The notes: generated by a model from the sequence alone, not told the origin. Shown: positions 19,517 through 49,678, counted from the stretch's first letter. The stretch: 53,420 nucleotides of DNA from an uncultured Desulfohalobiaceae bacterium (GCA_913055815.1 CAJXKR010000001.1:1-53420); one strand, 5' to 3'. Program-made: numbers and translations.

Positions 19517-19554
19517 TTGATTTAAATTTTTATTTTGCGTTGCAAAATAAATCC

Positions 19555-19920: not shown

Positions 19921-19947
19921 CAAAAAATACGATAGAGGTGATGAGTT

Positions 19948-20274: not shown

Positions 20275-20305
20275 AAAGTCTAAAAATTTTTTCCTGTAAG
20301 AGGTA

Positions 20306-20345
20306 TAAAAAAAGGGGAGCAATAGTAATTGTTCCCCTTTTTTTA
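20306..20345. terminator. bidirectional rho-independent terminator between phasin (+) and dodecin (-)
   Basis: AAAAAAA-GGGGAGCAAT-AGTA-ATTGTTCCCC-TTTTTTT: a 10-bp stem (one G-U pair) flanked by an A tract and a T tract. Confidence 0.85.
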
Positions 20346-20403
20346 TAACGAGGCAAGTTGCTACCTGATCTTTCCAAATTTGCTTTCAGGATTCTAGAGA
20401 TAC

Positions 20404-20613
20404 TTACTTTTCATACTTAAACGATACATTCAATCTGGTCCTGAAGTTCTTAATCTTACCTTCCTCTATTTTCATATCCATTTTGTTGACCTCTGCGATC
20501 CTCATCTCTTTTAGAGAACCGGATGCTGATTCAATCGCGTTTTTTGCAGCATCCTCCCATGATTTTTCACTTGTGCCGACCAATTCAATGATTTTGTAAG
20601 TACTTTCCGGCAT
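20404..20613 (-). CDS. dodecin-family flavin-binding protein
   Basis: 69 aa with GGAGG upstream. YKIIELVGTSEKSWEDAAKNAIESAS...IAEV...IEEGKI..FR..LNVSF is the typical dodecin pattern. Confidence 0.85.
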   Translation of the reverse strand: MPESTYKIIELVGTSEKSWEDAAKNAIESASGSLKEMRIAEVNKMDMKIEEGKIKNFRTRLNVSFKYEK

Positions 20614-21483: not shown

Positions 21484-24400
21484 ATGAGTAAAGACAACTT
21501 GATCAACCAATTCATCCTGGAACCCTTGGAACCCAGGCTGCTTCTATCCGGTGATCCTGTAAGCGGTGCCCTGCAGGCGATCTCTCCTGATCAGGGAGAG
21601 GGCCAGATAGACAAGGCGATCGAGGAGGTGCTCCAGGAGGAGGATCGTAAGAAATCCACGAGTTCCCGGGGCGATGTTTCCAGGCAAACCGTGTACAGAG
21701 ATCTGGCCGGATTCCGGCAACAGCAGGACCGGAACTCAGGGCCCGGGCTGCAGTCCCGGATGCGGGATCTGGACATCTCTGACCAGGCCCAGGGGGATCA
21801 AGGGATCAAGAATCTATTCACCCCACAAGAGATAGACGTACTGGACAGGGGTAAACTGGAAGAGCTGGACCTGAACGCATTTATCCCGCAGTTGCGGGAT
21901 ATGTCAATAAAGTCCCCCCAGTCTCCAGATCAAATGCATGGCGAAGAACTGAAGCCAGATGAATTCTCCGGGGAAGCTGAGTTGCAGGGGAGATTGAGTT
22001 CGGATCTCCGGGTGCTGGACTCCGGGAAACTCTCGGGTACCGGCAAAATAAACGGCAACCTGGACAATCAGGGAGTGGTCTCCCCTGGACATTCCCCCGG
22101 CACGGTAAAGACGCAGTCTTTTACCCAGGGGGAGAAAGGGGATTTGGAGATCGAGATTGCAGGTACGGATCCGGAGCAGTACGACCAGATTCAGGTGTCT
22201 GACAGCGCAAGGCTGGGCGGTGATTTGAACGTCTCCCTCCTGGAAGGCTTCCAGCCTAGTCCCGGGGATACATTCGATATAATGACCTATGATCAGGTCG
22301 AGGGAAATTTTGACCAGGTGTCCGGGATGTTCGGATTTGGCCAGGGGGATCGCTATTTCGATTTGAACAAGGGCCCGGAGAGTCTGCAGCTAAAAGTCCG
22401 GGATATGCCAGGGGACCTGAGCTTGAACTGGGACCAGCAGTCCGGGGACAAGTCCGGGCATTCCCTGTGGGATATGGACCTGGGGACCTACCAAGATATG
22501 TTCGACCAGGACCTGAAATCCGGCAAATTGGACCTGTCCTCCAGTTCCCGGGGTATGACCTATTTGGCCGGAGACAATGGCCAGGTGCGGATAGGCAGCG
22601 GTGATTACAGCGTCTCCAGTGACGGCCCGGAATTCAGCAGCGGACCCGTGCTCAAGGCCATGAATTTCCAGAGTCTCTCTGGAGGCAGCGGTGCGGACCG
22701 GATGGTCCTTTCCGGGGACAGCGGCAAACACGCGGATATACGCGGCGGCGCCGGAACCGACGAACTCCAGGTGCTGGGCGGGGACAGTACCTGGGATATT
22801 ACCGGAAAAGGTTCCGGAAGCGTGGGAGATGTCCGGTTTGGCCAGATAGAGAATCTGACAGGCGGGGCAGACAATCGGGACACCTTTGTGGTGCATCCAG
22901 GCGGCAATCTGCAGGGAACAATCACTGCTGGAGAGGCTGGTTGGGACACCCTTAAGGTTCTGGGCAATTACCAGCAGAGGACTTATGAGTCTAATGGCCC
23001 GCAATCCGGCAGGGTGGTTCTGGATGGAAATAGTCTAAACTATAGGGGTTTGGAGCATAATACCAATGACAGTAATAGCAAAAATTTACATATCGAATTG
23101 AATAACAAGAAAAATACTGCCCTGTTCAAGCCAGGCAATGATAAGGGCTTTGTCCTGGAGCCAGTCAACGGTAGCTTTTCTAAGCACAGTCATGACATAC
23201 CTGAAAACTCTTTGACCATCAGTATGCAAGGTGGGGATGACACCCTCAACGTACAAAAGTTCACCGATTTTGCCGCAGATTTGAAGGCAGATGGTGGCAA
23301 GGGTTCAGATACGGTGAATTTTAAGAACAATCTATTTACCCATGGGAACGATCTAAGCGTAGATGCGGAAAATATTACGGTTGAACAAGGGGTAACCCTA
23401 TCCACCAGGGATATAAGCAGTAAAGAAGTGCAGGATCACAAGACCGGGGTTGAAAAAGGTCCTTCCGGGGATATTGCTTTTAGTGCCGGTATAAAGAACA
23501 ATACAGATAAAAAGCTTAGCACAGATATAAATATCAAACAGAATGTCCAGATTTTGACCCAGACCACGCCGCATTATTTTGATCCAGGTAAACTGCAAGA
23601 TGGCAGGATTGAGCTCAAGGGGAAGGATAATTTTTCCAACAATGAGCCGGTTATCTATGATAGCGGTACTGCAAAGGATTTGGAGTATAATCTTAACGGA
23701 AAAAGCCATCCCCTGATGAGTGATCGGGGGCTTTTATCCGGTGATCCCTACAGGATTAAAAAGGACAATTCTGCCTGGGCATTGGCAAATAGCAAGAGCG
23801 CGGGCAAGTTAAATATCCAGGCAGATGAACAGGCAAGTAGAAAGTTCAAGGCCAGCGACGTAGACGGAAATAAGATAGATTTTAAAAACCCCCATGAGCT
23901 CGGGACCGGTGATCCCCTGATCTTTTCAGTACCAGGTTCAGCAGGGAATACAACCAATCTTGCAAAGGATGAAGCCTATTATGCAGTAGTGGTTTCCTCC
24001 AAAAGCATACAACTGAGCAAGAGCAAGCCGGATGCCCTTGCTGGAAAAAATATTGTCGATCTTCAAGCAGGCTCTTCTGATACCCAGTACGAACTAAGCC
24101 GCGCCCAAAGCCTCAGTTATAGAGCGGGCAGTGTAAAAATGAGCTCACAAACCAAGGTAACTGACCTGACACAGGTCCTGCCAGAGAACTACCAGGAAAA
24201 GCACAGTTCCGTAACAGTAGGCAAAAAGGCGCTAATAAAGGCGGGAAACATCAATCTGAATTCCATGGCCAAGGATACGAATCCGATTAAGCAATTGAAA
24301 CAGACTTCCAAGTTTGAGCAGATATATAACGACATGATCCCTAAGGAGTTCTATGATCACATCAAGGACTTCTTGTCCCTGCCGGTTGGGGTCTTTGCGC

Positions 24401-45400: not shown

Positions 45401-48400
45401 TCAGTAAGATAAGTTTGACCAGGGGTGATAGATATACACTTGAACTGGGAGATGATAAATTCACGAACAAGTTTAGTAACGAAGCATTCATCAGGGAAAT
45501 AGCCGGAAGCTTGAGCCATAGCGATACCGTAGATGATACTTATGTCCAGGGAAAGGTATTGTCTCTATTTGCCAAGTCTAAGCAGGATGTTGAATTTGGT
45601 CCCCATATGTATGAAAAGACTCTGGATTTCGACAAGATCACTCTAACTGCAGGCCGTGAATATGCTCTGAAATTAGGAAACCATGATTATAAGCACAAAT
45701 ACAATTCCAATCAAAGCAAGTCTGAGTTTCTCAGCAAGCTAGCGGAGCAGGTAAGCGACAGTAAAATTGTTAACAAGGCCAAGGTGAAAACAAACAATAA
45801 GTTATACTTTTCTGCTTATTCCGATCATAGTATCAGTCTTGCCGAGATTCCCAAAGAGGTGGGCAGTGCGAAATACCATCTCAGTAAAGATTTTGGCGAC
45901 CAGAAAATGACAAAAGGTAAGGAATACGCTTTTTGGATCGACAATAGCAAGTTTACAGAAAAGGTTCCAGATCTATCTTTTTTGAGCCAACAAGAAGCTA
46001 AAGCAAAATTTTTAAAAGGGCTAAAGAAAGATATAAATGACAAAAACGTAATTGGTAATAAATTCGACATAGAATTATCAGGTCAAGATAATAATAACTT
46101 CCACATAAGCACTGATGCTTCTTCTTTCAAGGTCAAATTCGGGTTGAATAATACTACTCTTAACCCTGAAAAATGGCAATCAGAATGTACAAAAACTATT
46201 GATTTCAAGGATATCTCCTTGGTTCAAGGCAAAAAATATATCTTCAATCTTAAAGATAATAAATTTACTGAGAAGTTTGGTTCCGAAGAAAGCAAGTCTG
46301 AATTTGTCACCAAGTTGTCTAATAGTTTAAAAAATAGCGATAAAGTTGACATCAAGAAAATCAATACTTCAGGAAGTAAATTGGAATTAACTACTGATAA
46401 TAATTATAGTAGCAAATTGAGCGAAGCATCAATGGATTTGGGTACCACCTCCAAGACCAGCTTGTCTAAATTAGGGAAAGTGGATACCCCAATGTACAAG
46501 GGAAAAGTAGATCTTGGTAAATCTACTCCTGTGGCTGATCATGAATACAAAATTGACATGCCAGGTGACAAGAATAGCCCGTACAAGTACCAGGCCAGCA
46601 GGGGAGAAGACCTGGCGACTATAGCAAAGAAACTGACCAATAAGATGCGATCTGAAAGCGGCAATAAATATCAGGCTACCTGGTTGGGTAAGAGCTTGAA
46701 GATTTACGCGAAAAGTTCGAAAATCAATTATACTGTGCCTGATAAGGTTGAATTGTCGGATGATGTCCATGTCAAGTCCTTGGAGATGAACGGTGGCGAC
46801 CTGACTATCACAGCCAAAGGGGATGTGGATATAGGATCTGTCAAAGGGGATGTTGGTGATATTAATATTATTTCCAATCAAGGGGATATCAATATCAACA
46901 GCCTGCCCAACAGTCAGGCGGTGACATTGAAAGCGCCTGAAGGCAAAATAACTGGGTCAATCGAGGCAGACACCCTGAATCTCACTGCCAATGGAAAAGT
47001 GGATATAACCGAGGCAGACGGCATGACCCTGAGCCACTTGGAGCAAAAACACACCAGTTCTCCAGTGAAAATCAAGGTTGATAAAGGGACCTTGAAGGTG
47101 GGAAGCGACGTCTCTGCAGGGCCCAAACTGGCCTTGATGGCTAATGACTTGGATATCGCCGGCCAATTACGCCGGGCGGGCAGCACTTTCCACGTGCAAC
47201 CGCCTGATTCCAAGGGCAAGATTGTCCTGGGAGAGAACAGTTCTGCTGGCAACAATGCCTTTCACCTGAACAAGAAAGAACTCTCCGGTTTGCATACAGG
47301 TGCCGACCATTTGGTAGTGGGTAGCGATCAGGGCAGTCACGAGATCCATATCGGGGATTCTGATGATGGTTCCAGCAAGACCAATTTCAACCACGGCTTG
47401 ACCTTGAAAAACCCCAAACAGGGCGGGGAAATCTATATCCACGGGACCGTGACCGGCGGCTCCGGTTCCTCTCTTGCCGTGCACGGTTCAGGAAGTACTA
47501 CGAACTTGGACAATAGCGAGATCGAAATATCCGGAAATCAAGAATACAATGATTCCCTGCAGGTAAGCGGGGAGTCTTCTATCCACTCCCATGGTTCCAT
47601 CCAATTGGGAGGTAAGGCAGAGCACAACCTGAACGGGGATTCCCAAAAGGGAGAAGATAAGCTGAGCCTCAGGGCGGGCCAGGACGAGGACATTGTCATT
47701 AATACCCGGGTCGGGGACCAGGATCCCTTGGAAGACCTGACCATCCACCAAGCCAGGGATATAATTTTTAAAAGCGGGGTAAGCCTTGACGGTGGCCTGC
47801 ATATAGAGCAGGCCCGGAACGTGACTTTCCGGGACGGGGTTACTGCACATGGCGATGTACACATACAGGCAAGCGGCGAGGTGTTGTTTGAGGATGAAAT
47901 GAAGATCAAAAACAATGCTCGCCTGCATGTGGAGGGGGCTGAAAAGATTAGGCTGGGAGATGACGTCCATGCTCAGGGCAATGTTAATCTGCTGGCGGAC
48001 CAGGAGAGCGGCCAGGTTGTTGTAAAAGGCGATTTGACAGGTGAGGGTGAGATAGAAGTGCAAGGTGCCGGAAACACCACGCACTTGGTAAACAATAACC
48101 TCAGCTTGAGCGGCAACCAAAAATACCACGATGCTTTGCAGGTTACCGGAGATGTGATTATCACTGCGGATGATCACCTGGAACTCGGAAAAGATCCGCA
48201 ACATTCCATAAACGGGGATAGTAAGACCGGAGCGGACACCCTGATTATCAATAACCACCATGGCGAACACCTGGTTGTTAACAGCGCAATAGGCAAAACC
48301 GATCCCCTGGAGGGGATGACGGTTCAAGAGTCCCAGGATATTGATTTTAACAATATCTTGAACATAGACGGGGACCTCAGGATCGAACAGGCAGAGGACG

Positions 48401-49440
48401 TGACTTTTGCAAATCAAAGCGATCTGCAGGGAAATCTGGATATTATTGCCCAGGGGGATGTGGATTTTGAAAATACCATGAATTTGAATAGCTTGAGCAT
48501 TAAGGGAGCGGATGTGATCAGATTCCAGGACCGCGTGGAGTATACCGGGCAGCTGGACTTGAATGCAGAGCATATCTACGGCAAGGATATGCTGGTATAC
48601 AAGGGGTCTTCCGAGGACCCAAAAGATAACGATGGCAAAACTCCAGAGGCTCCTGCCGAACCTGTTGATCCTTTTCCGGAGAATCCCTTTTATAACGCCT
48701 TGGACACCATTCATGCCTGGAACGGGGAGGTCCTGGAAAACAGATTCCAAACCACCATGGATATCGCGAAATCGCAGGGTGTGTTTTTGGGCAGCGAATA
48801 TGTCTCCGAGGCAAGCTTCCTCAGCGGTCTACGTGCCGAGCAGTCCCAGGAGTTTCAGTCCGGGGAGGACAATCTATATGCGGAATTTCTCGGAGTACAA
48901 GAAAGATACTTCACCCTTGCAGGCGAAGGGCAAGAGGGACCGGGCAGCGCATATACCCTTGGGGATGGACTGCAAGGTTCCAAGGATTTGCAATTGGGCC
49001 AACTTTCCCTTGGGGTGTTTGACAGTGGATTCGGCCAGTCCAGTTACTATGCCGAGGATATATATGCCGGGGAGGGTCCTTTCCAGTTGTTCGGATCCGG
49101 GATGTTCAGTGAACCCGGAATAATGGTAGAGGCTAGGGCCGAACCCCGGGAGATGCCCTTCAAGGCGGTAGAGATACCCGGTCTGGAAGCCCGGGAACTG
49201 AAGTTCTCCGAGGGAGAGCGCATCTCCTTGTCCTGGTCCGGAGTCAGCAGTGCTGACAAATACAAAGTGTTGATTATGCGCGACAACGTGGTGGTGGCTA
49301 CCAAGTGGGTTGAAAAGGGAACAAAATGTAACCTGGATCAGGACTTGATTCCGGGCAGTTATCAGTGGCAGGTGCAGGGCTGGAATATGAACTCCGGCAT
49401 AGCGGTGAAATCCCAAACAGGCGAGCTTATTGTCCAGTAG
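21484..49440 (+). CDS. giant (9,318 aa) LEPR-XLL-type mosaic beta-helical adhesin-like protein
   Basis: Single ORF of 27,957 nt with no stop; GGGGGAG before the ATG. Contains an N-terminal LEPLEPRLLLSGD motif, RTX-like nonapeptides, hundreds of degenerate beta-strand repeats, and lectin-type domains (see sub-features). All long antisense ORFs inside it are low-complexity shadows. Confidence 0.9.
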   Translation: MSKDNLINQFILEPLEPRLLLSGDPVSGALQAISPDQGEGQIDKAIEEVLQEEDRKKSTSSRGDVSRQTVYRDLAGFRQQQDRNSGPGLQSRMRDLDISDQAQGDQGIKNLFTPQEIDVLDRGKLEELDLNAFIPQLRDMSIKSPQSPDQMHGEELKPDEFSGEAELQGRLSSDLRVLDSGKLSGTGKINGNLDNQGVVSPGHSPGTVKTQSFTQGEKGDLEIEIAGTDPEQYDQIQVSDSARLGGDLNVSLLEGFQPSPGDTFDIMTYDQVEGNFDQVSGMFGFGQGDRYFDLNKGPESLQLKVRDMPGDLSLNWDQQSGDKSGHSLWDMDLGTYQDMFDQDLKSGKLDLSSSSRGMTYLAGDNGQVRIGSGDYSVSSDGPEFSSGPVLKAMNFQSLSGGSGADRMVLSGDSGKHADIRGGAGTDELQVLGGDSTWDITGKGSGSVGDVRFGQIENLTGGADNRDTFVVHPGGNLQGTITAGEAGWDTLKVLGNYQQRTYESNGPQSGRVVLDGNSLNYRGLEHNTNDSNSKNLHIELNNKKNTALFKPGNDKGFVLEPVNGSFSKHSHDIPENSLTISMQGGDDTLNVQKFTDFAADLKADGGKGSDTVNFKNNLFTHGNDLSVDAENITVEQGVTLSTRDISSKEVQDHKTGVEKGPSGDIAFSAGIKNNTDKKLSTDINIKQNVQILTQTTPHYFDPGKLQDGRIELKGKDNFSNNEPVIYDSGTAKDLEYNLNGKSHPLMSDRGLLSGDPYRIKKDNSAWALANSKSAGKLNIQADEQASRKFKASDVDGNKIDFKNPHELGTGDPLIFSVPGSAGNTTNLAKDEAYYAVVVSSKSIQLSKSKPDALAGKNIVDLQAGSSDTQYELSRAQSLSYRAGSVKMSSQTKVTDLTQVLPENYQEKHSSVTVGKKALIKAGNINLNSMAKDTNPIKQLKQTSKFEQIYNDMIPKEFYDHIKDFLSLPVGVFARKSTAATEIQSDSKLIASGDVDLSSKSIAEVKAKASGKNLSIGVGLSESTANVDISQGTTIRAEDNATILSKSDSHVSAEAATEQDKDPDSNFQSKYGISGGFAYNQVSSNSTLAEGTSVWAGRKANVMSKGNKSTKNKAKGGNYKDGKSDLGIAVSWTDADVESQVHGDITSEAEKYNSNTLPAFKPEQAINEQKDTINLGYNHGISTGHPITYSNGHMAVTLKEASVGEQKFGFKHEHSISLEGTGARLENGKTYHAIAKDPYSIRLAETRKKALGGDHLDITGPGGIYEVDLKKENVNVQDNMIHKKAHGLVDGQPVQVELDQGNYSDVGIEKGKTYYVGTSFDVQKGQATAGYDDLLLCETPEDANAEKGIDLSKAFSGTIKALQNFHTGLTPGVGVSSSLDSEDKVSSSAGIKGAAKGQSKVDLSGQDVGSQIQSGVDKLSTYSEDTSNVETKTGGDLGAAAAISLALGPEDSKVKNHAQSVVSGDISSSKVAEVTSQVKETYTVKAKGSAKKSTAGEKSGSSSALAGGIAVGSFSSQGQTTIKKGANLDASEATNVTSEVSYPWKTAPVELAKHLLGANGNLEGKKPKKIMHFLDGTLGIKSNLFNSWTTSTASSDDAISGTFTYLNFDNRAKTTLEPGVDINQDQARKGEENPQLVITSSEVLVQQFNMSGIFKFNLNKKGFKHLKNIFDPAPVKASGDAAGVSFLLMDMHNTSSTVINDNCNIYTSQESPFVVRAETRVLNFALAQSGSSGGNWGVGGSTLINNIQNSTQALIKPGATVNSGGIMLNAYDSTHQITWAGGIAAGGSKGIGASVGVNNISRETEARLGKKSGQEDAPKVRANAVKHVAAKSTGAVHAFSVAGSEQSKNSLKNTDQDFGIGASGAVSLNLMDTKTQAAIRGLSPLKQGGDTQGAGSESSGNMLVLSSDQTSMFALAGAVAFAFPTESKTSTGLAGAFSMNKLSGYTRSRVEDTELKNRKQIGVRSRIGGKIRSITAGGSGGMANSSKDAGSIAGAVSFNTVNHDVGSQVDNSHIDPSKNLLVTAWDRSDIYADAGGVALMADKGGGSSVSVGLSVQKNNIHTDTKARLTDSKVTGAQDVVLSSLDAAQIKGFSASGAGTVQKSGSGQYQDPETQMKSRESEVSTGVNKYENWHQDGFKRLDPTKQTPWHAGESDGQSSEGSTTTSLQASGSSTAVAAAGTVSKNDVKGDTNALISGSQGIDVQNMNIIARDDSLIKVDAGAGSLALNLKLQGEGSGNSLSVGFSLALNKVDNDVTAGVENPDKDIDIQESTFVDASSDSRIKNLSVAGSVAGGYNEDGDAVSISGVGATSKNTVHNTVRASLSAQNKGHAINSDRGISLSSRDNSKIQAKAMGAVLNSAISTSGSGDSFSIGETTALNNVTNTAKSFVRNLELKTTENAGKNIISSTGKDTRLAGGEIVHDQNQDRYYRYIGIDQDLKSSYGDIHFRYEMDLPKLMNVDDFSDTDQWRDITGEVTDKQGNEDVPGILSRATSGANIHVRAIGAQIGADFSSEDSLNISLGATVSKNKIDNDVQSFVKNAPSVDVKDSDVQIQANSAGKQLLSRDSSDLQFSALDLDIAAAYADKDGSAYQDEAQSTLKELENLLGIADQDKIFSKKSKLTTKGKYWKYTKHDGKQKVHQGDRVLAGDQLFKYTGDSQKLDLGEQEYLQSDNWTSVQVEKNQTWSLLTPDGDAYSLQTTGDTNDKLKFEVFDKNINSVSAAASLSASLSGDSGISVSGAGAVAINSIRGKTSASIRDSEITNAQDVQLSAENSSGIASTVVALSGSVSVGDSGAGVSLGSAVARNFIGYSATGDKDSREVQAYIDSSSVQADGSLNPRAIAGQKISTVVISGSVAVTAGEGDALGASGSGVWAQNRIAVDTKAYVHQGGNSNIEVSKASLEAADKSSVFAHAGSASIAASFTGGDSADLSLGVSLARNRIDNDVRADVKGAEQKFKTTSGDISIKAENSARIKSIAWAASLAAGFSGGDSLSVSGAGAQAENVINSGTKAYTEDSKLDSSKNLDLTANDASSIDAFILGASLAVSGSGGSAAGLSIGVSLARNRIGWEEEDVDADYTTKDNPEKIKNGDKVKIAQGVRKGDVYKYIAQDNLTRPDKKGASGWLSNMDYANKEAWELVNRKASESTVKAYARDTTLQARDEVKIEAKSNSQIDAHVYAFSGAISVAGSAGVALSGSGANAVNRISTDVQAGVKGDGKQDTREVRANDLTVRAVDKSRIHAHLGTASLGVAMGGDLGISASIGVSLAHNAISNSAIASIGNAEIHVTDLDMKARDKSEIYAHSWAAAAAVGGGGIAGVGAAGAGAHAQNSINNQTKAYIANNSQIQAEEVGIRAENTATIKSKTWSWAAGVGIGGVGGVGAAVGGAKAENFIGHTGDSKVLAYAKDSTFKPSKKLEIRAQNESTIDARVSSGSVALGGGGLLGGAISASGTHTKNITATEVRAYSKNSSIVETYSFFSQDPSQEHYVSSHDKKVKVMPGKTLVQDGHSDNNAVYRYTGKKKREISLSQVDYTQSDQWKQYKDLEIKVKSQDESTIKAHTQAISVAESIGTVGGSVSVSVALAKNEVKNDVQAYVDDNAKIDAGGLVVQASENAKVDSSSLVFSSAGSASLGFALSGAGGSTKAVVDTTTKAYIKDSPSIDLANDLNVYAQTKVDVDAEVDGQSQALSAIGVAGEGSKVKVELNPVTEAYVDNSRIKSADDVRIEADQASVSATATAKGFSVGTGAAVGVSEATVQKNKSSQVIARAGEDVRIDKASLLSVQALGESTLRAESVAGSGALGYSAAGAQSKTRENTRVRAVIGKNARIGTKDQGNVQSLNIVSNYHQDVDSRADAISVAGAKSGAGAVAENTILSSSRVNIGKNARVTVQDDAVIHADNKLTKNKYDLNINSGAAAAESLSSLSSVTHIGKQDERFLAKVEVQDGAKLLIKGSLQDKGIFHVRARTHVDAQDKVKLKAAGGLDVALAKSEIKAYTGSEVELNAATLKNKTGDLYITTRTYSQTSPDVSVKMVDLIGGAGAQARGVVDANNHIKADDAYIQANTVYMRAGQNTKGVTNNLGGDSRSTIKTAGLFNIDDPKAHLSINEDNQIYLKDGTKVYSLGNVFLSAREGMGGDKRGNVSTHMINIGIPPYGGSGDGDKDVSSTNKVNAGDNVKVQAGVHSNLKLHVKKLPSDKDFGDTVQVDSGITYEYAKPEYTLGSTDTDNDQKMFKDLKKNLAIYKPQHMPTAELQSVNVANMLLKRYENLQKWITNHASDTQAVARYQSEKKEVKKALEKLGLTEELSKDGKTHKMVNKQYDRIMLKLPDSYAAPGSVFVNASSTGKSKVENWTGQNILQGSSGAEINIANQSPFSMLVENAVIHDTNVRFPAGNTSKAFKPGHVFFNKKSVSGSDAQKDNKINITQDTGDAETYLGKSWSNLSDEQKNRFESSGKHLYLRGTVYNHVGDVEVTNQDGSINVTGKLKGKNVNVKANGNFDLNTSGLEQLADPRQVYKSAIDKLQGEVDKDSTKYKDKLSSNDQDESQIHARGHVDINAKAININGSIKSGVSDMVVNIKESFSPDQNVRIRPQGKNNETIKQLENMSQPQASVPGIDYSSESGFPTPITGFFDANKEQIVINELQPTAGRVTLAGEIINTGQGNIQVAQGTPHVEINNQSEYDLTLRGIDTRSTSRGKIVLKDTKTLQKDEYIFQQNAKGKQEIVHNHYKGTETTNDQGNPTIDYEKQKTEKKTDSDANFKYKPQEGRYYHWVSGQEVTKVTKKTYKDNSILGIDALVKNGTLVNKSTHPDDPRPLLESQSVVNENNEDAAFKVYHFQKRNTAVELKKNITQVREVDSNKIYSYQGKDGAKKTLSKIDYANSSNWKQANLTGQEKKNWSADPGNNKYKSTYNNKTVTHHKWTTHHGFLDLEKTVHLRETITAGYKEYYHNWIKADNEITIEPRHIANDPGIFVNTRNDLHINGDIHVSSNSPDKPIHLTSNNGSIKTTSGAGIYGKSPEVTAGEKVDLLVEGEQGALNVQADQDVKLKAVGSTSSSSRSRASLVLKKVHSEHGDVHIAAQEGIGGHSESSGAHVKGDLIQLDAREGGIQAKGSGDDYLRVNSDVSGNGGVAAWATNNVYIQQTQGDLKIADPQAWEIGDTGNSQQAGAAVISTGHQVHLKASSGSILDAVYEKGRSNNQDPYLSPGLMQHLYPHSPEMSQKFSGSDSSERLNVSGSALNLNANADSGTLGAFSDVLTIDMANLKDFQDLSGTKQQALANAAQSDIIGVNYPIYQYQGNKRKIDLADVEVKNGALVKNVHGNNNTVYRYTGQQTKNVDLDQVDYAQSSEWQKSNKDFSSQDPSKGHYFSSYVNKQRFDNEADLWKKREIAHSTHTSRKQEQKVDLDKHDWVEVRYSKSIYGLYEYLGQGKQDVDLSEQEFTDAALWKKHSTADADFHSSAGGTIKLQENDYVSNRFKVQRITLQNIQDLNIKATSQVSAGGQKVALKAKGDLDVDSIESAGDVQILSSGDLLLQKQGQVRSSAQHSDIDLEAGGKLRIKSTSEVEAAKKYSSVQLVSQNQMLVQGSVTAHQGMDLEMGTGNKELAQYLDKNMDKYLTNHDQGKFGFLLQGGTLETQSGNADINIRSKDALILQGDIDIKQDRSDLTLESREWTYWQGNTQVGGDIELYGGTKKQGLEIVDENGANTDGVSVYLARESELITSNPDSRIDVHASKKAIIKGDLIAGGSLGNKGVSFAGPGSSVQVKSINGRISMHNAELAASQNVQVYGGKQDAVSVYMDDDSMLNSGGKSNDSGTSRVKVDARGDVQILGTIVSGGVVHSGDYPWSPQDVQWTQKPSESEIVLDSRGQVHLGGKAKTEQGGEVTVGADLMAYSKVDIQGGKSSDGMGFRMPAKANVYSHDKNISIDSKNDAQQVLIEGKLHSAGDMSISSKGDVTILGKGQLDAQGKVTLNAGGDLEIKADAPGAQTWHVRKPNNTTQGKQVHVPGNTNKTKSGTKKVNKTHWEPTVVERKTGSADVQVGTKHYRLEDVALNQTGYYNGEKIRDYFVEGEDYHNEQITNWGDANKPQNNNITFERLTVKQRRAVLKHLGYQPLYDLAKYTPHVITKTYGQTTHKEKNPWKGNEKKIYHMTDAENLKNTYVRMPKGAQKCFNTSAQSDTKYLHGDKKLDGELNLDKKQWSLSPDAQGKVKLYKETGHKGKEYKFSPGKYPILKGLDNKFSSLKVPDDMWITAWSEENFHGIKTHWTSAASSLDSDDISSIKVWSKVDKSAWIEKKNKANGELVARYQDTAKVKYHQDRSRFQSGGKIVGYEPYPNPGEPEYPSKIKRHAYEPGPGRWKIELDSQGKRKFNLAEKGGEVSLDKKPEWAKDMSHKPTPKNYKPQQNDTHIKDNPKHVPDFFGTGRNVYVPQGYLKDTARVTGEVEKDGNEPTVGWKYTEYHERAYDKIEDSVSYSKASKHARSKSDSNRDAFLAMPRTETQFNEVRMRVGDGHGDRAWIGIVQLDDGSWAYDTTPWHNITDWSNFSEIPWKEGEPSGSGDGGRVNTYREGWNDEQRTNTHWYIVQYEPWWEKSKPLSEQFKDYTYDWTSRSEDIHVERNQLNYNWVKSASEKITRKESIDHRKSTQVKTTNGEQVTQQKHQQQYDTDTKLVSKRSTSQEKGNFARFHGDSIDGADVDIDVSGKADISGNIVADKKDKGEGTLSIQSGKELSVEWQKPKHSDTDHPARIFLKGGESLELHAGTQLDLEDNVKLGLKGKNDTAPGDKVEFRADGDITQNADVTASEKITVHAGHDVDLKGRMEVKAQDGHIDVHAGDGGSGSEQDGSIRGNKHTHLLAKGEQGEISLAAGKSAGHIDLRGSYINAQKQVGLKAQGGKVEFSGMGKLDTSTLYGRAKQGFSVVHTHKESSKTVSNAHVEKLNVELSGKGNIVLSNDRKLTLQKVVAAHGDIDISSLGKMEANNVRTQGSGERNDIRLLTHDKNKEDQDSSKLTLGTIQAGGQGDIDLKIRGSIQQSSSGTLSADELKVDTYGKLDLATDVHTLGLITHGKGDVTLSQKGADLAHKDLELENVQVQNGGLTLNTAARVELEDVSLSTNNNDNDIEVMAAGDILVHKLTAGSYKKGSSSDKNRTSHGDIHLHSKQGKIAEEFIDPAVDLVADSLELEAQNRITGLELAVNKLAKAKTQTGDIRLKDKDGAGEVRKGLRVLSAHAPSGDVSIESDNFLEIGAEDWSGKNSKEQYGSQKKYYAYKDKAYSPSSEYDSTAVQGDTISLSSASGNINVIKPSGGDRALQYQSGLSLKAGGILDMDTFYNKASELLEYKAEHLDFKIDKDISADRVILNTDSVLKLHSTLTAKELLDISGSKVIVSGHVKAADDAPDNKIQKVDITAQGDKNSPSLKGYYQLQNISGKTLKDSSPDSIPGKLKGTKGASVNFKGQDGYVDLGASDKLKPTDALTIETKVNPEDWSLSKGTQTILSNTQNGGYDLQLHDNRIEFRVKVGDKYQVAKTSKDFTQGLNGWHQIAASFNQRSLKLYVDGGVKDTVALQGSANKISYTHKGNSTLIGAEAGPGADADGHFFNGRISDVRIWDKARAPNNLKLYEKEVNIDLDNNGDTQGVVRTNYFNKAKGDVILDIDGLQASDFELRAEQDIKLNLQQDLALQGFIGGLSGFEPARNLGINTNGDLTVPGGIVEAEDQILLDANKIDTHAGAVFISEDLDVEARGDLDLHTLVNDLWANSTSGGKITIHEGTDIRLRNIVNQKGGIQAHVGEKMQVKANDSVSAKNGDIDLYAVKQGDVNKDVIDAHNGQVTISKEAKHTLPANNQVDHDYVLTAPDYSGDLTLKATAGDSDPSLSVVRLPSLQSSKIDLEADDNLNVLPKLDVGRGPTGGTINLKSGGGISLGQVVRANALHVTDNGKGENVHLKTKVDKLTASMGKNSDLSIHDPSSGIGIKYKKYEQDLSKLYKKSIDFSKISLTRGDRYTLELGDDKFTNKFSNEAFIREIAGSLSHSDTVDDTYVQGKVLSLFAKSKQDVEFGPHMYEKTLDFDKITLTAGREYALKLGNHDYKHKYNSNQSKSEFLSKLAEQVSDSKIVNKAKVKTNNKLYFSAYSDHSISLAEIPKEVGSAKYHLSKDFGDQKMTKGKEYAFWIDNSKFTEKVPDLSFLSQQEAKAKFLKGLKKDINDKNVIGNKFDIELSGQDNNNFHISTDASSFKVKFGLNNTTLNPEKWQSECTKTIDFKDISLVQGKKYIFNLKDNKFTEKFGSEESKSEFVTKLSNSLKNSDKVDIKKINTSGSKLELTTDNNYSSKLSEASMDLGTTSKTSLSKLGKVDTPMYKGKVDLGKSTPVADHEYKIDMPGDKNSPYKYQASRGEDLATIAKKLTNKMRSESGNKYQATWLGKSLKIYAKSSKINYTVPDKVELSDDVHVKSLEMNGGDLTITAKGDVDIGSVKGDVGDINIISNQGDININSLPNSQAVTLKAPEGKITGSIEADTLNLTANGKVDITEADGMTLSHLEQKHTSSPVKIKVDKGTLKVGSDVSAGPKLALMANDLDIAGQLRRAGSTFHVQPPDSKGKIVLGENSSAGNNAFHLNKKELSGLHTGADHLVVGSDQGSHEIHIGDSDDGSSKTNFNHGLTLKNPKQGGEIYIHGTVTGGSGSSLAVHGSGSTTNLDNSEIEISGNQEYNDSLQVSGESSIHSHGSIQLGGKAEHNLNGDSQKGEDKLSLRAGQDEDIVINTRVGDQDPLEDLTIHQARDIIFKSGVSLDGGLHIEQARNVTFRDGVTAHGDVHIQASGEVLFEDEMKIKNNARLHVEGAEKIRLGDDVHAQGNVNLLADQESGQVVVKGDLTGEGEIEVQGAGNTTHLVNNNLSLSGNQKYHDALQVTGDVIITADDHLELGKDPQHSINGDSKTGADTLIINNHHGEHLVVNSAIGKTDPLEGMTVQESQDIDFNNILNIDGDLRIEQAEDVTFANQSDLQGNLDIIAQGDVDFENTMNLNSLSIKGADVIRFQDRVEYTGQLDLNAEHIYGKDMLVYKGSSEDPKDNDGKTPEAPAEPVDPFPENPFYNALDTIHAWNGEVLENRFQTTMDIAKSQGVFLGSEYVSEASFLSGLRAEQSQEFQSGEDNLYAEFLGVQERYFTLAGEGQEGPGSAYTLGDGLQGSKDLQLGQLSLGVFDSGFGQSSYYAEDIYAGEGPFQLFGSGMFSEPGIMVEARAEPREMPFKAVEIPGLEARELKFSEGERISLSWSGVSSADKYKVLIMRDNVVVATKWVEKGTKCNLDQDLIPGSYQWQVQGWNMNSGIAVKSQTGELIVQ
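21517..21555 (+). other. LEPR-XLL-type N-terminal motif of the giant protein
   Basis: LEPLEPRLLLSGD at residues 12-24. The preceding residues MSKDNLINQFI have no hydrophobic signal-peptide core. Confidence 0.7.
22681..23319 (+). other. dispersed RTX-like Ca-binding nonapeptides near the N-terminus
   Basis: GGSGADRMV (22681-707), GGAGTDELQ (22744-70) and GGKGSDTVN (23293-319) fit GGxGxDxUx. GGADNRDTF and GGDDTLNV are partial matches. They are dispersed, not a tandem RTX block. Confidence 0.55.
23570..25565 (+). repeat. four copies of a ~70-100-aa module (h-G-x-x-T/D-G-x-P-h-x-h ... G-K-T-Y-Y/H-h ... LA/LS ... A-x-G-x-x-h-D-h)
   Basis: NNEPVIYDSG...; PHELGTGDPLIFSVPG...DEAYYAVVVSSKSIQLSKSKPDALAGKNIVDL; NHGISTGHPITYSNG...NGKTYHAIAKDPYSIRLAETRKKALGGDHLDI; AHGLVDGQPVQVELD...KGKTYYVGTS... 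Confidence 0.5.
26690..33110 (+). repeat. long run of degenerate beta-helix-type repeats ending in G-[AS]-[SG]-h-[AS]-x-N-x-h-x-N/T-x-h-x-A
   Basis: About 20 occurrences, e.g. SLGVSLARNRIDNDVRADV, SVGFSLALNKVDNDVTAGV, SLGATVSKNKIDNDVQSFV, SVSVALAKNEVKNDVQAYV, SIGVSLAHNAISNSAIASI, GAGAHAQNSINNQTKAYI, GAGAVAENTILSSSRVNI. Confidence 0.7.
40065..40295 (+). other. beta/gamma-crystallin-like domain (two Greek-key motifs)
   Basis: KLYKETGHKGKEYKFSPGKYPILKGLDNKFSSLKV + ITAWSEENFHGIKTHWTSAASSLDSDDISSIKVW. The second half has W-x4-F-x-G, and both halves have the ...SS[LI]KV signature. Confidence 0.6.
40850..41200 (+). other. C-type-lectin-like domain (Cys-poor bacterial variant)
   Basis: AFLAMPRTETQFNEV...RAWIGIVQLDDGSWAYDTTPW...WKEGEPSGSGDGG...EGWNDEQRTNTHWYIVQYE. 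WIG, GEPS and WND-type motifs occur in the canonical order; the canonical cysteines are absent. Confidence 0.5.
43745..44270 (+). other. LamG / concanavalin-A-like lectin domain
   Basis: GASVNFKGQDGYVDLGASDKLKPTDALTIETKVNPEDW...GGYDLQLHDNRIEFRV...WHQIAASFNQRSLKLYVDG...FFNGRISDVRIWDKAR: classic Laminin_G_3-type pattern. Confidence 0.75.
45352..46716 (+). repeat. five tandem ~80-100-aa Lys/Asn/Ser-rich repeats
   Basis: Units begin at about 45352, 45604, 45872, 46186 and 46490. Shared pattern: [ILV]DF.KI.L..G..Y.[LF].L.D.KFT.KF.....KSEF..KL...L..S..V. Examples: SIDFSKISLTRGDRYTLELGDDKFTNKF; TLDFDKITLTAGREYALKLGNHDYKHKY; TIDFKDISLVQGKKYIFNLKDNKFTEKF. The DNA here is visibly more A/T-rich than the flanks. 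Confidence 0.75.
47479..48600 (+). repeat. tandem duplication of a ~190-aa beta-helical unit near the C-terminus
   Basis: VHGSGSTTNLDNSEIEISGNQEYNDSLQVSG...LNGDSQKGEDKLSLRAG...VGDQDPLEDLTIHQARDIIFKSGVSLDGGLHIEQARNVTF aligns with VQGAGNTTHLVNNNLSLSGNQKYHDALQVTG...INGDSKTGADTLIINNH...IGKTDPLEGMTVQESQDIDFNNILNIDGDLRIEQAEDVTF. Confidence 0.75.
49160..49437 (+). other. C-terminal Ig/Fn3-like beta-sandwich domain (last ~90 aa)
   Basis: KAVEIPGLEARELKFSEGERISLSWSGVSSADKYKVLIMRDNVVVATKWVEKGTKCNLDQDLIPGSYQWQVQGWN...: alternating beta pattern with the typical W...Y.V...Y.W.V spacing. It follows a Pro/Glu linker (TPEAPAEPVDPFPENP) and a Gly/Ser/Phe-rich segment. Confidence 0.45.
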
Positions 49441-49484
49441 ATTGTCGGCAGGGTAGTTATCTGTTATCAGGGACCAGGTCATTA

Positions 49485-49532
49485 GTTGTTTAGTGGTTAT
49501 GTGTTTACGTGATTACGTGATTAAGTGGTTGG
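49485..49532 (+). repeat. tandem array of six 8-nt units GTGNTTAN
   Basis: gttgttta gtggttat gtgtttac gtgattac gtgattaa gtggttgg, starting 45 nt after the giant-gene stop. Confidence 0.85.
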
Positions 49533-49610
49533 CCAGCACCCTTTGCAGGGAGAGTGCGCAGGGCTGGGCGCGATTAATGCCCAATCGCCCATAGCCTATA
49601 GCCCATAGGC

Positions 49611-49667
49611 TCGAACATCGAACATCGAACGAAGAACGAGGGACAAGGAACGAAAAAACGAAAAACG
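49611..49667 (+). repeat. degenerate purine-rich heptamer array (ARRAACG) abutting the sapC Shine-Dalgarno
   Basis: tcgaaca tcgaaca tcgaacg aagaacg agggaca aggaacg aaaaaacg aaaaacg, followed immediately by AGGAGG-taatc-ATG (49679). Confidence 0.7.
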
Positions 49668-49678
49668 AGGAGGTAATC

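Follow-up and report, generated by a model that had tools for sequence, protein, structure and literature searches.

A one-megadalton LEPR-XLL protein of an uncultured bacterium and the conserved gene set that may export it

How might a bacterium release a protein of one megadalton that carries no classical signal peptide? This question is raised by a 53,420-nt window, i.e., the whole stretch of DNA analysed here, which comes from an uncultured bacterium and encodes one giant protein. A preliminary description of the window had concentrated on that protein; the genes that follow it, all on the same strand, proved equally relevant:

21484..49440 (+), giant ORF; 9,318 aa, 1,001 kDa, pI 5.8, 5 Cys, TM helix absent
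49679..50377 (+), sapC; 232 aa, PF07277 at E 1e-71
50575..52239 (+), TolC-like outer-membrane channel; 542-554 aa, PF02321 (OEP) at E 1e-38, TIGR01844 at 102 bits, below cutoff
52435..53274 (+), small membrane-fusion protein (MFP); 278-279 aa, N-terminal TM, HlyD_D23 and HlyD_3
53292..53420 (no strand), tail of 129 nt unique to the window

We began with the N-terminus, MSKDNLINQFILEPLEPRLLLSGDP, which scored 29.9 bits at aa 10-31 against NCBIfam NF012209 (LEPR-8K; cutoff 17), so that the protein belongs to this family both by a motif above the curated cutoff and by its very large size (9,318 aa). The maximum 19-aa Kyte-Doolittle hydropathy was 0.56 for stretches starting at aa 1-25 and 1.42 anywhere in the protein, and a Sec-type core and TM helices are therefore absent. 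That the N-terminus lacks such a core yet carries LEPRxLL had been noticed by eye, and both points hold; the further claim that no export signal is recognisable is right for Sec, but it overlooked the export-type genes next door and the likely function of the motif itself. The consensus F-x-[LV]-E-x-L-E-P-R-[LIV]-L-L-S-[AG]-D-P was found in 31 proteins, always 10-60 aa from the start. Since LEPR is N-terminal in every family member examined and a conserved block of export-type genes accompanies the giants, it is most likely the export signal. Among LEPR giants, moreover, the N-terminus (LEPR and the module at aa 150-310) is conserved, whereas the C-terminus is not.

Along the protein, we distinguished the following modules:

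21511..21576 (+), LEPR-XLL N-terminal motif, aa 10-31, proposed leader peptide (NCBIfam NF012209)
21577..21930 (+), acidic Pro-containing spacer, aa 32-149, probably disordered (composition; homologues and domains not found)
21931..22413 (+), conserved N-terminal module, aa ~150-310, SPGHSPG...YDQIQV...GDL (homologues)
22651..23433 (+), RTX-like Ca-binding-type region, aa ~390-650 (three consensus nonapeptides)
24103..24921 (+), module common to other LEPR-XLL proteins, aa 874-1146 (blastp)
26689..33162 (+), shaft, aa 1736-3893, at least 26 LktA-type repeats of ~53-65 aa (NF012206)
33163..39450 (+), irregular beta-rich region, aa 3894-5989; holds further YxYxG inserts and copies of a second repeat of ~130 aa; annotated domain absent
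39469..40023 (+), Module A, aa 5996-6180; conserved domain without annotation that recurs among giant proteins (homologue clusters)
40051..40308 (+), beta/gamma-crystallin-type domain, aa ~6190-6275 (weak match of its own, homologues)
40900..41583 (+), C-type lectin domain, aa ~6473-6575, and a connector of ~125 aa that is also conserved (profile)
43798..44277 (+), LamG / concanavalin-A-like lectin domain, aa 7439-7598 (Laminin_G_3)
45379..46743 (+), tandem array of five ~80-105-aa repeats, aa ~7966-8420; repeat five divergent
47533..48540 (+), adjacent pair of ~130-aa repeats, the best-conserved copies, aa 8684-8829 and 8875-9019 (self-comparison)
48601..49437 (+), Pro/Glu linker, acidic Gly/Phe-rich tail and the final ~94 aa; not conserved in other LEPR giants

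The architecture first proposed by eye was upheld in part. Pfam and NCBIfam tile searches recovered LEPR-8K, LktA_tand_53 and LamG and found no catalytic domain, as expected from the preliminary description, and a search for orthologues with the same domain order returned none apart from one close relative. The charged spacer is evident from composition (net charge -19 in aa 1-250), and the GxxSPGHSPG..YDQIQV module that follows is real and conserved, with 33-47% identity to segments of >20 proteins and a presence in at least 10 SapC-linked LEPR giants. Some of its homologues bear the JGI names “T5SS/PEP-CTERM-associated repeat protein” or “fibronectin-binding autotransporter adhesin”. The dispersed RTX-like nonapeptides were upheld in part: three strict copies (GGxGxDxUx) occur at aa 400, 421 and 604, vs 0.2 expected, in a region homologous to segments of PF00353-bearing proteins and of other LEPR proteins, although neither tiles nor short segments matched Pfam HemolysinCabind. 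The module at aa 874-1146 aligned by blastp with three LEPR-XLL proteins (P0006, P0016 and P0022) at 22-26% identity over ~260 aa (E 1e-17 to 1e-22). The four “GTGDP modules” (Gly-x-x-T-G-D-P) were undetectable as a repeat family, and a 65-aa RTX-like seed showed no repeat-family behaviour.

The ~6-kb repeat shaft was well supported: it belongs to NF012206 (LktA_tand_53) with scores of 193.1 and 225.4 bits (cutoff 50), and a self-trained HMM counted 26 repeat copies, and the repeats also show in a self-blast map; small YxYxG...W inserts interrupt them. The “duplicated 190-aa unit” is likewise real, but as a member of a dispersed ~130-aa beta-rich family with at least 16 copies between aa 614 and 9019. 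This second repeat type frames the cassette formed by Module A, the crystallin-type domain and the C-type lectin. All five tandem repeats were retained, four clear and one divergent, and this cassette is missing in the closest orthologue (L010, which lacks aa 7946-8422). LamG was confirmed (Laminin_G_3, E 3.6e-19, 69.8 bits), whereas the terminal Ig-like domain was not, with no Pfam or PDB match, the C-terminal 94 aa included in the PDB comparison. Ten short segments covering the N-module, RTX-like, GTGDP, tandem repeat, duplicated unit and C-terminus gave no match in Pfam.

For the globular insert, a word-index search with aa 5990-6700 returned no match, and homologues came from an exhaustive HMMER search. 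Module A has homologues in 96 representative clusters, without a Pfam or PDB match by profile; its AF2 model, built on an 11-sequence alignment, reached a core pLDDT of 80-94, and the best Foldseek match to the PDB had E 3.5. The crystallin and C-type lectin folds first suspected here gained support from homologues and a profile. The crystallin region itself matched Crystall_3 at E 7.6e-4 (20 bits vs a cutoff of 27.3) and 2kp5_A at E 3.7e-4, while its homologues P0234 and P0262 scored 94 and 83 bits against Pfam Crystall. A 10-sequence lectin profile including the window protein matched the lectin domains of SP-A, SP-D and MBP (E 4e-15); homologues pass Pfam Lectin_C, but the window's own PF00059 score is not significant, and it has WIG, EPS and WND (WIG...GEPS...WND) without the canonical disulfide cysteines. 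PDB sequence searches with both halves yielded one weak crystallin match only. A single-sequence AlphaFold model of aa 6140-6650 was discarded (pLDDT 34.5).

From this domain content, we predict a fibre or adhesin role for the giant protein. The repeat shaft, lectin-type modules and crystallin-type domain favour the extended fibre with binding heads that had been proposed. Its anchoring to the cell surface is putative; the one pair of studied relatives moves to a partner cell. These are Cag_663 and Cag_665 (old tags Cag_0614 and Cag_0616) of Chlorobium chlorochromatii, the epibiont of “Chlorochromatium aggregatum”, which were studied experimentally in a 2026 preprint (10.64898/2026.03.19.712371). 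The window protein, described at first as unlikely to have been characterised, is thus a new uncharacterised member of a catalogued class, LEPR-XLL, of which one pair has been studied; the description fits the protein, not its kind. In these relatives LEPRxLL comes with beta-helix repeats of hemagglutinin-like type and, in Cag_665, a crystallin motif; sapC and tolC lie beside their genes, both were localised in the partner bacterium, and the N-terminal modules of the window protein are common to Chlorobiaceae LEPR giants. Whatever its export route, the product might then work on contact, as a “needle” or transfer protein that reaches a neighbouring cell. We consider this unlikely, though not negligible: domain and PDB searches found no toxin, enzyme or membrane-insertion domain, the lectin-type, crystallin and LamG content is typical of binding proteins, and the needle model of the preprint is itself a prediction.

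Next to the giant gene lies a set of six genes, three in the window and three on an overlapping contig and in the near relative L010, where all six stand in a row. SapC is presumably cytoplasmic, as it has no signal peptide and no clear TM segment (a borderline hydrophobic stretch spans aa 32-50); no solved structural relative was found for it. The small MFP scores as an RND/MacA-type adaptor (RND_mfp 106.8 bits vs a cutoff of 94.9) and not as type_I_hlyD (49 bits vs 209). The other three of the six apparatus genes lie outside the window: past ~53292, all other assemblies continue with GAF-MFP, PqqD-M50-MFP and SecA-like genes. Specifically, in ERZ27241909 the giant-gene contig overlaps at 100% a contig that starts with GAF-MFP, M50-MFP and SecA-like, and the end of contig L002 is shared, at 100% identity, with the starts of L055 (141 nt) and L056 (107 nt); in assembly L001, the GAF-MFP gene is interrupted after ~170 nt.

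The SecA paralogue (~660 aa) retains NBD1, PPXD and NBD2 together with the GEGKT and DEAD-type motifs, but wing, two-helix finger and C-tail are missing; its alignment to Bacillus subtilis SecA covers residues 45-601 only, and the gene is named “prepilin peptidase” in RefSeq. In the M50-MFP protein, a PqqD/RRE-like domain is fused to an M50 intramembrane protease and to an MFP domain; the protein has ~6 TM segments and invariant HExxH and NPLLRFDGYY. Its PqqD domain scores 28.7 bits in Methylosinus, above the Pfam cutoff of 23.4; in the window lineage it falls slightly short, at 22.0 bits, and the fusion reaches 166 bits against daptide_HExxH, also below cutoff.

This block, i.e., sapC, TolC-like, MFP, GAF-MFP, PqqD-M50-MFP and “wingless” SecA, was found in dozens of genomes from at least 7 phyla beside LEPR-led giants. 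A survey anchored on SapC gathered 45 genomic loci of this SapC subfamily, from Desulfobacterota, Beta- and Gammaproteobacteria, Chlorobiaceae, Campylobacterota, Gemmatimonadota, Magnetococcales, Cloacimonadota and Kuenenia. SecA-like, M50-MFP and GAF-MFP occurred together in 18 of the 45, all five partner genes in 14, and an ORF starting with the LEPR consensus in 15. The linkage is not universal, with 10 of the 45 loci lacking any partner (5 of these span ≤10 kb). When searches were instead anchored on the SecA-like gene, the block of OEP, MFP, GAF-MFP, M50-MFP and SecA-like was recovered in four of five loci, two of these loci adjoined giants that begin with LEPR, the longer-known length being 25,214 aa for one, and L057, a SecA-like gene, was an orphan. 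In two complete RefSeq replicons of cultured bacteria, the same set stands beside giants of 12,918 aa (“LEPR-XLL”) and 8,847 aa.

Given these associations, we propose that LEPR is the leader peptide for a dedicated envelope-spanning exporter, and the product a Ca-dependent extracellular fibre with lectin heads, a reading that we hold to be probable on sequence grounds. The PqqD-like domain and/or the SecA-like preprotein-binding domain would bind the leader, as we infer, and the Cys-poor chain, still unfolded, would be driven N-terminus first by the SecA-like ATPase. Removal of the leader would probably fall to the M50 protease, cleavage being purely conjectural; periplasm and outer membrane would be crossed in a conduit made up of the MFPs and the TolC-like channel, with SapC as a cytoplasmic accessory. 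A SecA-type motor and a leader-recognising protease would hence replace the ABC transporter of type I secretion. Outside the cell, the giant chain would fold into a long fibre, probably with Ca2+, a role suggested by the RTX-like motifs, the crystallin and the Ca site of the lectin, and the lectin-type heads would bind glycans on surfaces or other cells. We know of no way in which a SecA without the two-helix finger could push a chain, and no inner-membrane channel is evident besides the M50 domain; SecYEG may therefore still be needed.

Two lines of published work touch on such a motor: in Chl. chlorochromatii, the LEPR giants and sapC are co-expressed with a secA gained by horizontal transfer (10.64898/2026.03.19.712371), and an independent study proposed that wingless SecA domains embedded in Omnitrophota giants export the very proteins that contain them (10.1101/2023.11.21.568195). 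The broader proposition, to which we give an even chance, is that LEPR-XLL would be the leader of a new Gram-negative secretion class, in which an MFP/TolC conduit is powered by a wingless SecA instead of an ABC transporter, a PqqD(RRE)-M50-MFP protein recognises and cleaves the leader, a GAF adaptor regulates and SapC assists. The class would be dedicated to megadalton fibres and extend over at least 7 phyla, including cultured marine and soil bacteria. We found no description of the putative exporter in the literature.

Could the giant instead be a classical type I substrate, with an unlinked ABC transporter reading a C-terminal signal, export proceeding C-terminus first via the neighbouring MFP and TolC-like channel, and LEPR used otherwise, e.g., for retention? 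LapA and the SapA/SapCDEF system of Campylobacter fetus would be the models. The adjacency of sapC, MFP and TolC-like genes to the giant gene would suit this route, as would an acidic, Cys-poor protein with RTX-like nonapeptides. Two reports also count against the leader model: for a Vibrio LEPR giant, RTX and serralysin domains were reported at the C-terminus (PMC10868602), and Kuzyk et al. favour C-terminus-first, T1SS-like export. Still, no ABC-signature ORF occurred in the window or in the 54 loci screened, no ABC transporter lay within 10 kb in any SapC-anchored locus, and the conserved block carries a SecA-type ATPase in its place. Type I export is further disfavoured by the conservation of the N-terminus and not the C-terminus among SapC-linked giants, by RTX-like motifs that are N-terminal and isolated and lack a HemolysinCabind match, and by a small MFP of RND/MacA type; we judge it rather improbable.

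The giant ORF is real and codes for an exoprotein of ~1 MDa and LEPR-XLL class; the bacterium, which is uncultured, probably belongs to Desulfobacterota. The 27.96-kb ORF (21484..49440, +) translates with one terminal stop, in-frame stops lie just upstream, and the window contains zero N. At the observed composition, 9,318 open codons have a chance of ~1e-179. Tandem Repeats Finder detected no nucleotide tandem repeat inside the ORF (its sole match was 44 nt with score 60), which makes repeat collapse unlikely. The same gene was found in five other assemblies (ENA ERZ511486, ERZ27241909 and ERZ23491536; JGI 3300027580; Logan SRR6192418) at 99.7-99.99% nucleotide identity across window positions 39.7-53.3 kb; in two of the five, where the contigs measure 114 kb and 86 kb, the called product is intact at 9,320 aa, and the intact ORF was recovered in at least three assemblies. 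The single open frame described at the outset is thereby upheld, and the ten longest overlapping or antisense ORFs (154-420 aa) have no Pfam match. That the ORF is an assembly artefact, a pseudogene or a non-expressed relic could be argued from its metagenomic origin, from the split of the L010 orthologue at about aa 7604 with one cassette missing, and from assemblies breaking just downstream of the MFP gene; set against the open frame, the missing DNA repeats, the recovery in several assemblies and domains conserved along the entire protein, this is very improbable.

Composition is uninformative on horizontal transfer, because the GC3 of the giant gene (0.545) resembles that of several neighbours. 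Within the window, no RNA family was found by Rfam, and a scan for the sigma-54 promoter pattern gave no excess and no site upstream of the giant gene.

A two-partner-secretion (FhaB/CdiA-like) or autotransporter exoprotein, to which the filamentous repeat shaft, a weak Fil_haemagg match (E 0.048) and the resemblance of the N-module to segments JGI-named “autotransporter adhesin” might point, is least credible of all, as the Sec signal peptide is absent, no TPS domain (Haemagg_act, PF05860), C-terminal beta-barrel or Omp85/TpsB neighbour was found, and the last 1,000 aa have no Pfam or NCBIfam match. T9SS, sortase and PEP-CTERM sorting were rejected in the absence of matching domains, a terminal TM segment and partner genes.

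The conserved gene set, which matters more than the protein alone, offers an explanation of how such giants might leave the cell without a signal peptide. It is easily recognised yet missed by current annotation pipelines, and an ABC transporter is absent from it. If it is an exporter, it would represent a new secretion architecture that joins SecA-type energy, RiPP-style leader handling and a T1SS-style conduit, it would supply a rule for predicting secreted giants from sequence, and the export model for the Chlorochromatium symbiosis proteins would need revising. The putative exporter is directly testable in cultured carriers.

Among known systems, Cag_663 and Cag_665 represent the closest studied relatives of the window protein. 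They resemble it in an N-terminal 24-aa LEPRxLL, very long beta-helix-type repeats, predicted Ca dependence, the absence of a classical signal peptide and the flanking sapC and TolC-like genes; Cag_665 also has a beta/gamma-crystallin motif, to be compared with the probable crystallin-type domain of the window protein, and the co-expression of both with a second, acquired secA recalls the SecA-like gene of the window lineage. They are, however, 2-4 times larger, at 20,647 and 36,806 aa, and their domains, which follow another order, include HK97-like folds and MtxA-like C-termini. A C-type lectin, LamG, the tandem-repeat cassette and another C-terminus set the window protein apart. Their authors propose a SapC/TolC/HlyD T1SS-like route, and the set of GAF-MFP, PqqD-M50-MFP and SecA-like is undescribed there (10.64898/2026.03.19.712371).

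LapA of Pseudomonas fluorescens and MpIBP of Marinomonas primoryensis are likewise giant, acidic, Cys-poor, Ca-dependent fibres with ligand-binding, including lectin-like, modules, and are exported unfolded via an MFP and TolC conduit encoded nearby. What sets them apart is an RTX beta-roll and signal at the C-terminus, a retention module at the N-terminus, BIg extender repeats and an ABC transporter of their own. In the window protein, the nonapeptides lie at aa 400-612, away from the C-terminus, and neither the retention module nor BIg extender repeats gave an NCBIfam or Pfam match at E ≤ 0.1; of the type I trio, MFP and TolC-like are present and a linked ABC transporter is absent. Campylobacter fetus SapA/sapCDEF also combines sapC with MFP and outer-membrane-channel genes and a substrate without an N-terminal signal peptide. 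There, sapD encodes an ABC transporter, an S-layer protein of ~100 kDa is exported, and SecA-like, M50 and GAF components are absent; here, sapD has no counterpart and the conserved block holds a SecA-like ATPase. FhaB and CdiA share a long filamentous repeat shaft presenting distal functional modules, but need a Sec signal, a TPS domain and TpsB, and their repeats are Fil_haemagg, not LktA_tand_53.

RiPP and bacteriocin systems (compared here through PqqD-type RREs, M50-type daptide and YydH/LiaK proteases, and peptidase-containing ABC transporters) parallel the proposed exporter in a short N-terminal leader, a PqqD/RRE domain, an HExxH intramembrane protease and an export conduit. Scores below cutoffs place the locus in no RiPP class, and RiPP substrates have tens of residues, vs 1 MDa, and an ABC transporter as motor, vs a SecA paralogue. 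Finally, giants of Omnitrophota and Actinobacteriota have a SecA motor without scaffold and wing that was proposed to export them (10.1101/2023.11.21.568195). In those proteins, which lack the LEPR motif, SecA_DEAD/PPXD and many TM helices lie inside the giant itself. No tile of the window giant matched SecA, and no TM-grade segment is present in it; in the window lineage, the putative motor is a protein of its own, 660 aa long, whose gene shares an operon with the TolC, MFP and M50 genes.

The 27.96-kb reading frame is real, and the architecture of its product is largely as the preliminary description had it. The single ORF runs from 21484 to 49440 on the plus strand, with 9,318 codons, one terminal stop and in-frame stops just upstream; from the stop-triplet frequency of the window, the chance of an equally long open frame is ~1e-179, and none of the ten longest ORFs overlapping it had a Pfam match. 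The window sequence contains no N. Since Tandem Repeats Finder returned only one 44-nt match (score 60) inside the ORF, the protein repeats are degenerate at the DNA level and assembly collapse is unlikely. The exact SapC protein encoded downstream was present on seven other contigs, five of which extend into the giant gene with 99.7–99.99% nucleotide identity to window 39.7–53.3 kb, and an intact 9,320-aa product is encoded on two of these contigs (114 kb and 86 kb). The giant product has a mass of 1,001 kDa, a pI of 5.8 and 5 Cys. Hydropathy over 19 residues peaks at 0.56 among windows that begin within the first 25 positions, confirming that the N-terminus has no Sec-type hydrophobic core, and at 1.42 along the whole protein, which therefore lacks a transmembrane helix as well.

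In the N-terminal half, the NCBIfam model LEPR-8K (NF012209) matches aa 10–31 (29.9 bits, cutoff 17), directly followed by the expected acidic spacer. The module proposed next, at aa ~150–310, is shared with >20 proteins at 33–47% identity and is also found in at least 10 other SapC-linked LEPR giants. Of the RTX-like nonapeptides, three strict ones occur in aa ~390–650 vs 0.2 expected, without a Pfam HemolysinCabind match, and parts of calcium-binding and LEPR proteins are homologous to this region. The segment at aa 874–1146 is common to the window giant and three other LEPR proteins. The long repeat shaft was recovered with a self-trained HMM as 26 repeats over aa 1736–3893 (spacing ~62–65 aa), and LktA_tand_53 (NF012206) matches within aa ~1750–3770 at 193 and 225 bits (cutoff 50). 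Short inserts with a recurring ~35-aa motif, (V/I)Y-x-Y-x-G...(L)D...DY...S..W, interrupt the shaft. The motif, YxYxG...D(Y/F)...W, has no family match; its six detectable copies (giant aa 2646, 3502, 4844, 5278, 5308 and 5409; window ~29.4–37.8 kb) punctuate repeat regions, some downstream of the shaft. For the four “GTGDP modules” of the preliminary description, no repeat was detectable.

In the C-terminal half, the Lys-rich insert returned no relatives in a word-indexed search and 147 in an exhaustive HMMER search, and divides into a module A, a beta/gamma-crystallin and a C-type lectin domain. Module A (aa 5996–6180; window 39469–40023; ~180 aa) occurs in at least 96 representative protein clusters, mostly giants, and has no Pfam entry and no PDB relative (best Foldseek E against PDB, 3.5); an AlphaFold model from 11 sequences gave long beta-hairpins and a core pLDDT of 80–94. 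Of the two folds suggested for this insert, the crystallin is probable and the lectin holds: the crystallin (aa ~6190–6275) matches weakly by itself while its homologues reach 83–94 bits on Pfam Crystall, and a 10-sequence profile including the window sequence matched the lectin domains of SP-A, SP-D and mannose-binding protein at E 4e-15 (aa ~6473–6575). The lectin motif reads WIG...GEPS...WND in the window vs WIG...GEPN...WND in relatives. The LamG domain (E 3.6e-19) and the five tandem repeats (four clear, one divergent) were likewise recovered. The “duplicated 190-aa unit” is a real pair, now read as the best-kept pair of a dispersed ~130-aa beta-rich repeat, which has at least 16 copies over aa 614–9019 and frames the globular inserts. 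The terminal Ig-like domain found no Pfam or PDB match, and no catalytic domain was detected anywhere in the giant, in line with the earlier inspection by eye. The C-terminus has a counterpart only in the one close orthologue, whereas the LEPR motif and the aa 150–310 module are conserved among SapC-linked giants. This closest orthologue (L010, 3–9755, aligned to window 39295–49440) is 72–84% identical in protein, with its ORF split near aa 7604; it lacks the five-tandem-repeat cassette (aa 7946–8422), which shows that close relatives differ by gain or loss of cassettes.

Three genes after the giant ORF had been overlooked: those for SapC, a TolC-like channel and a membrane-fusion protein (MFP).

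Genes of the window outside the giant ORF
1492–6912, minus strand: PrkA-like kinase, YhbH-like protein (NF003712, 653 bits), SpoVR
8334–12745: DUF3786 and Fe-S cluster protein, then histidine kinase, then sigma-54-dependent response regulator with PAS
14515–16092, minus strand: 525-aa ORF near the PHA genes, no Pfam match
17161–20613: class III PHA synthase pair PhaE and PhaC, then two tandem paralogous small ORFs (84 and 108 aa)
17161–20613 region, strand opposite to the PHA genes: dodecin gene
Directly 3' of the giant ORF: sapC (PF07277, E 1e-71)
After sapC: TolC-like outer-membrane channel (OEP, E 1e-38)
Third gene after the giant ORF: small MFP, 279 aa

No terminator-like hairpin was found in the 238-nt giant–sapC spacer (window 49441–49678), consistent with co-transcription of the two genes. 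Within the spacer, short direct repeats (CATAGCC/CATAGG, CGAACAT twice, GAACGA runs) accompany a strong ribosome-binding site (GGAGG). Among the other genes, the PrkA-like, YhbH-like and SpoVR proteins form a conserved stress/starvation trio, no sigma-54 promoter-like site lies upstream of the giant gene, and the 525-aa ORF is weakly similar (39 bits) to the class III PhaC alpha/beta-hydrolase. The 84- and 108-aa ORFs had no family match and are phasin-like by position only.

At the loci of distant N-terminal homologues, the same three genes (sapC, TolC-like, MFP) were found together with three more.

Further genes of the six-gene set
GAF-MFP, ~620 aa: GAF domain and MFP domain
M50-MFP, ~718 aa: M50-type intramembrane metalloprotease fused to an MFP-like domain
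SecA paralogue, ~662 aa

We then examined how consistently these genes accompany LEPR giants. A scan of GTDB, with each species represented by one genome and two aligned SapC sequences as the query, gave 45 loci for ORF mapping, which represent one SapC subfamily picked by the scan patterns rather than all SapC proteins. The SecA-like, M50-MFP and GAF-MFP genes occurred together in 18 of the 45, all five partners in 14, and an ORF opening with the LEPR consensus in 15; in many further loci a giant ORF abuts sapC with its start cut by the locus end. None of these features appeared in 10 loci, 5 of which span ≤10 kb. The loci come from Desulfobacterota, Burkholderiales, Hydrogenophilaceae, Halomonadaceae, Pseudomonadales, Chlorobiaceae, Campylobacterota, Gemmatimonadaceae, Magnetococcales, Cloacimonadota and Kuenenia. 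Anchoring on the SecA paralogue instead (at least 120 clusters, all 633–830 aa, nearly all 660–680 aa), four of five inspected loci held the OEP, MFP, GAF-MFP, M50-MFP and SecA-like block, and two of these four blocks adjoin giants starting ...FELENLEPRILLSGDP and ...FELENLEQRILLSGD, with a length of 25,214 aa for the second. The set also occurs on complete RefSeq replicons of cultured bacteria, beside a 38.8-kb “LEPR-XLL domain-containing protein” gene in Pseudosulfitobacter sp. DSM 107133 (NZ_CP085155) and a 26.5-kb “LamG-like” gene in Methylosinus sp. C49 (NZ_AP022333). Vreelandella aquamarina QJJ-865 (NZ_CP085210, 1.40 Mb) and Pseudomaricurvus alkylphenolicus KCTC 32386 are further cultured carriers. 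In the Methylosinus locus (L063), a DUF3467 protein (9747–10067) lies between the giant and MFP genes. Since the inspected stretch of this locus has no annotated sapC, and sapC is also missing from the block in several SecA-like-anchored loci (L058–L061), SapC seems to be an optional accessory.

In other assemblies of the window's own lineage, the set extends past the point where the window ends, 146 nt beyond the MFP gene. The last 129 nt (53292–53420) match no other assembly, diverging 17 nt after the MFP stop; all other assemblies run on into the start of the GAF-MFP gene, and four break within ~170 nt of the 53292 junction. The pattern points to a junction that varies between strains, to an insertion, or to a mis-join at the end of the window. 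Assembly ERZ27241909 has a giant-gene contig whose end overlaps, with 100% identity over 107–141 nt, a contig carrying the GAF-MFP, M50-MFP and SecA-like genes. In L010, the near relative labeled “uncultured Desulfovibrionales bacterium”, the six genes are consecutive, SapC is 98% identical to that of the window, and the DNA is 90–92% identical from sapC to the MFP gene. Assembly ERZ511486 (L001, 13661–20343) shows the locus in rearranged form: the GAF-MFP gene breaks off after its first ~170 nt, and beyond an unrelated 550-nt stretch lies a gene whose 1,989-aa product has a classical Sec signal peptide and Flg_new/Glug domains. The interrupted GAF-MFP gene thus indicates that strains vary at this junction.

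The SecA paralogue aligns to Bacillus subtilis SecA residues 45–601 only, and hence comprises NBD1, the preprotein-binding domain and NBD2 without the wing, two-helix finger and C-tail. Across 21 sequences, its GEGKT, DEAD-type and NBD2 motifs do not vary, and it matches SecA_DEAD, PP_bind and P-loop_SecA at E 1e-99. RefSeq names it “prepilin peptidase” (WP_114295152 in NZ_CP085155, WP_244635385 in NZ_AP022333 and several other family members), which looks like a propagated misannotation. The M50 fusion, called “PqqD family protein” or “site-2 protease” in RefSeq, combines invariant HExxH and NPLLRFDGYY motifs with ~6 transmembrane segments and an MFP-like domain in the periplasm. It begins with a domain of the PqqD type (RiPP recognition element), which scores 28.7 bits in Methylosinus; the scores of 22.8 bits for Pseudosulfitobacter and 22.0 bits for the window lineage fall under the 23.4 cutoff. 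The fusion resembles daptide and YydH/LiaK leader-processing proteases, although it scores under their cutoffs. In SapC, which has no solved relative, a signal peptide is absent and the only hydrophobic stretch is borderline. Across 31 proteins, the LEPR motif lies 10–60 residues from the start, usually behind a basic stretch, with the consensus F-x-[LV]-E-x-L-E-P-R-[LIV]-L-L-S-[AG]-D-P-L-x-G.

The earlier statement that the giant has no recognisable export signal should be revised, as it carries the conserved, putative N-terminal leader of its family and heads a conserved SecA-paralogue-based locus. From the protein anatomy, conserved linkage, intact catalytic motifs and lack of an ABC gene at the screened loci, we infer a candidate export route in which LEPR would be a leader that binds the PqqD-like domain, the preprotein-binding domain of the SecA paralogue or both, the unfolded chain would be driven by the SecA-like ATPase, and the M50 domain would probably remove the leader. 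The MFPs and TolC-like channel would form the route out, with the GAF domain putatively regulatory and SapC a presumed cytoplasmic accessory, and the exported chain would fold extracellularly, with Ca2+, into a fibre displaying lectin-type heads. A SecA without the two-helix finger has no known pushing mechanism, and SecYEG may be involved. The main rival, a classical type I secretion system (T1SS) with an unlinked ABC transporter, appears improbable: no ORF with an ABC-transporter signature (LSGGQ and Walker A) was found in the window or in the 54 loci L001–L054. Overall, the evidence moderately favors the combined reading, in which the giant, real and largely as described, has a conserved leader and heads a conserved export locus that is built on a SecA paralogue and appears to be undescribed.

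Searches of freely accessible full-text literature (SecA with SapC; PqqD with SecA and TolC; SecA-like with MFP and giant) found no description of the six-gene set, and within the same scope the term “LEPR-XLL” turned up in three papers only. A Vibrio genome note reports a LEPR-XLL protein of ~8,000 aa that has RTX and serralysin domains at its C-terminus (PMC10868602). The wingless SecA domains embedded in Omnitrophota and Actinobacteriota giants were proposed to mediate self-export, in a study that leaves TolC, HlyD, M50, SapC and LEPR unmentioned (West-Roberts et al. 2023, 10.1101/2023.11.21.568195). In Chlorochromatium, the giants Cag_663 and Cag_665 carry LEPRxLL, are flanked by sapC and a tolC-like gene, and are expressed and reach the partner cell; a SapC/TolC/HlyD T1SS-like, C-terminus-first export was proposed, and a horizontally acquired secA co-expressed with the giant genes was noted without being linked to them (Kuzyk et al. 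2026, preprint, 10.64898/2026.03.19.712371). The window giant adds a new member to the LEPR-XLL class and is not a protein of unprecedented kind.
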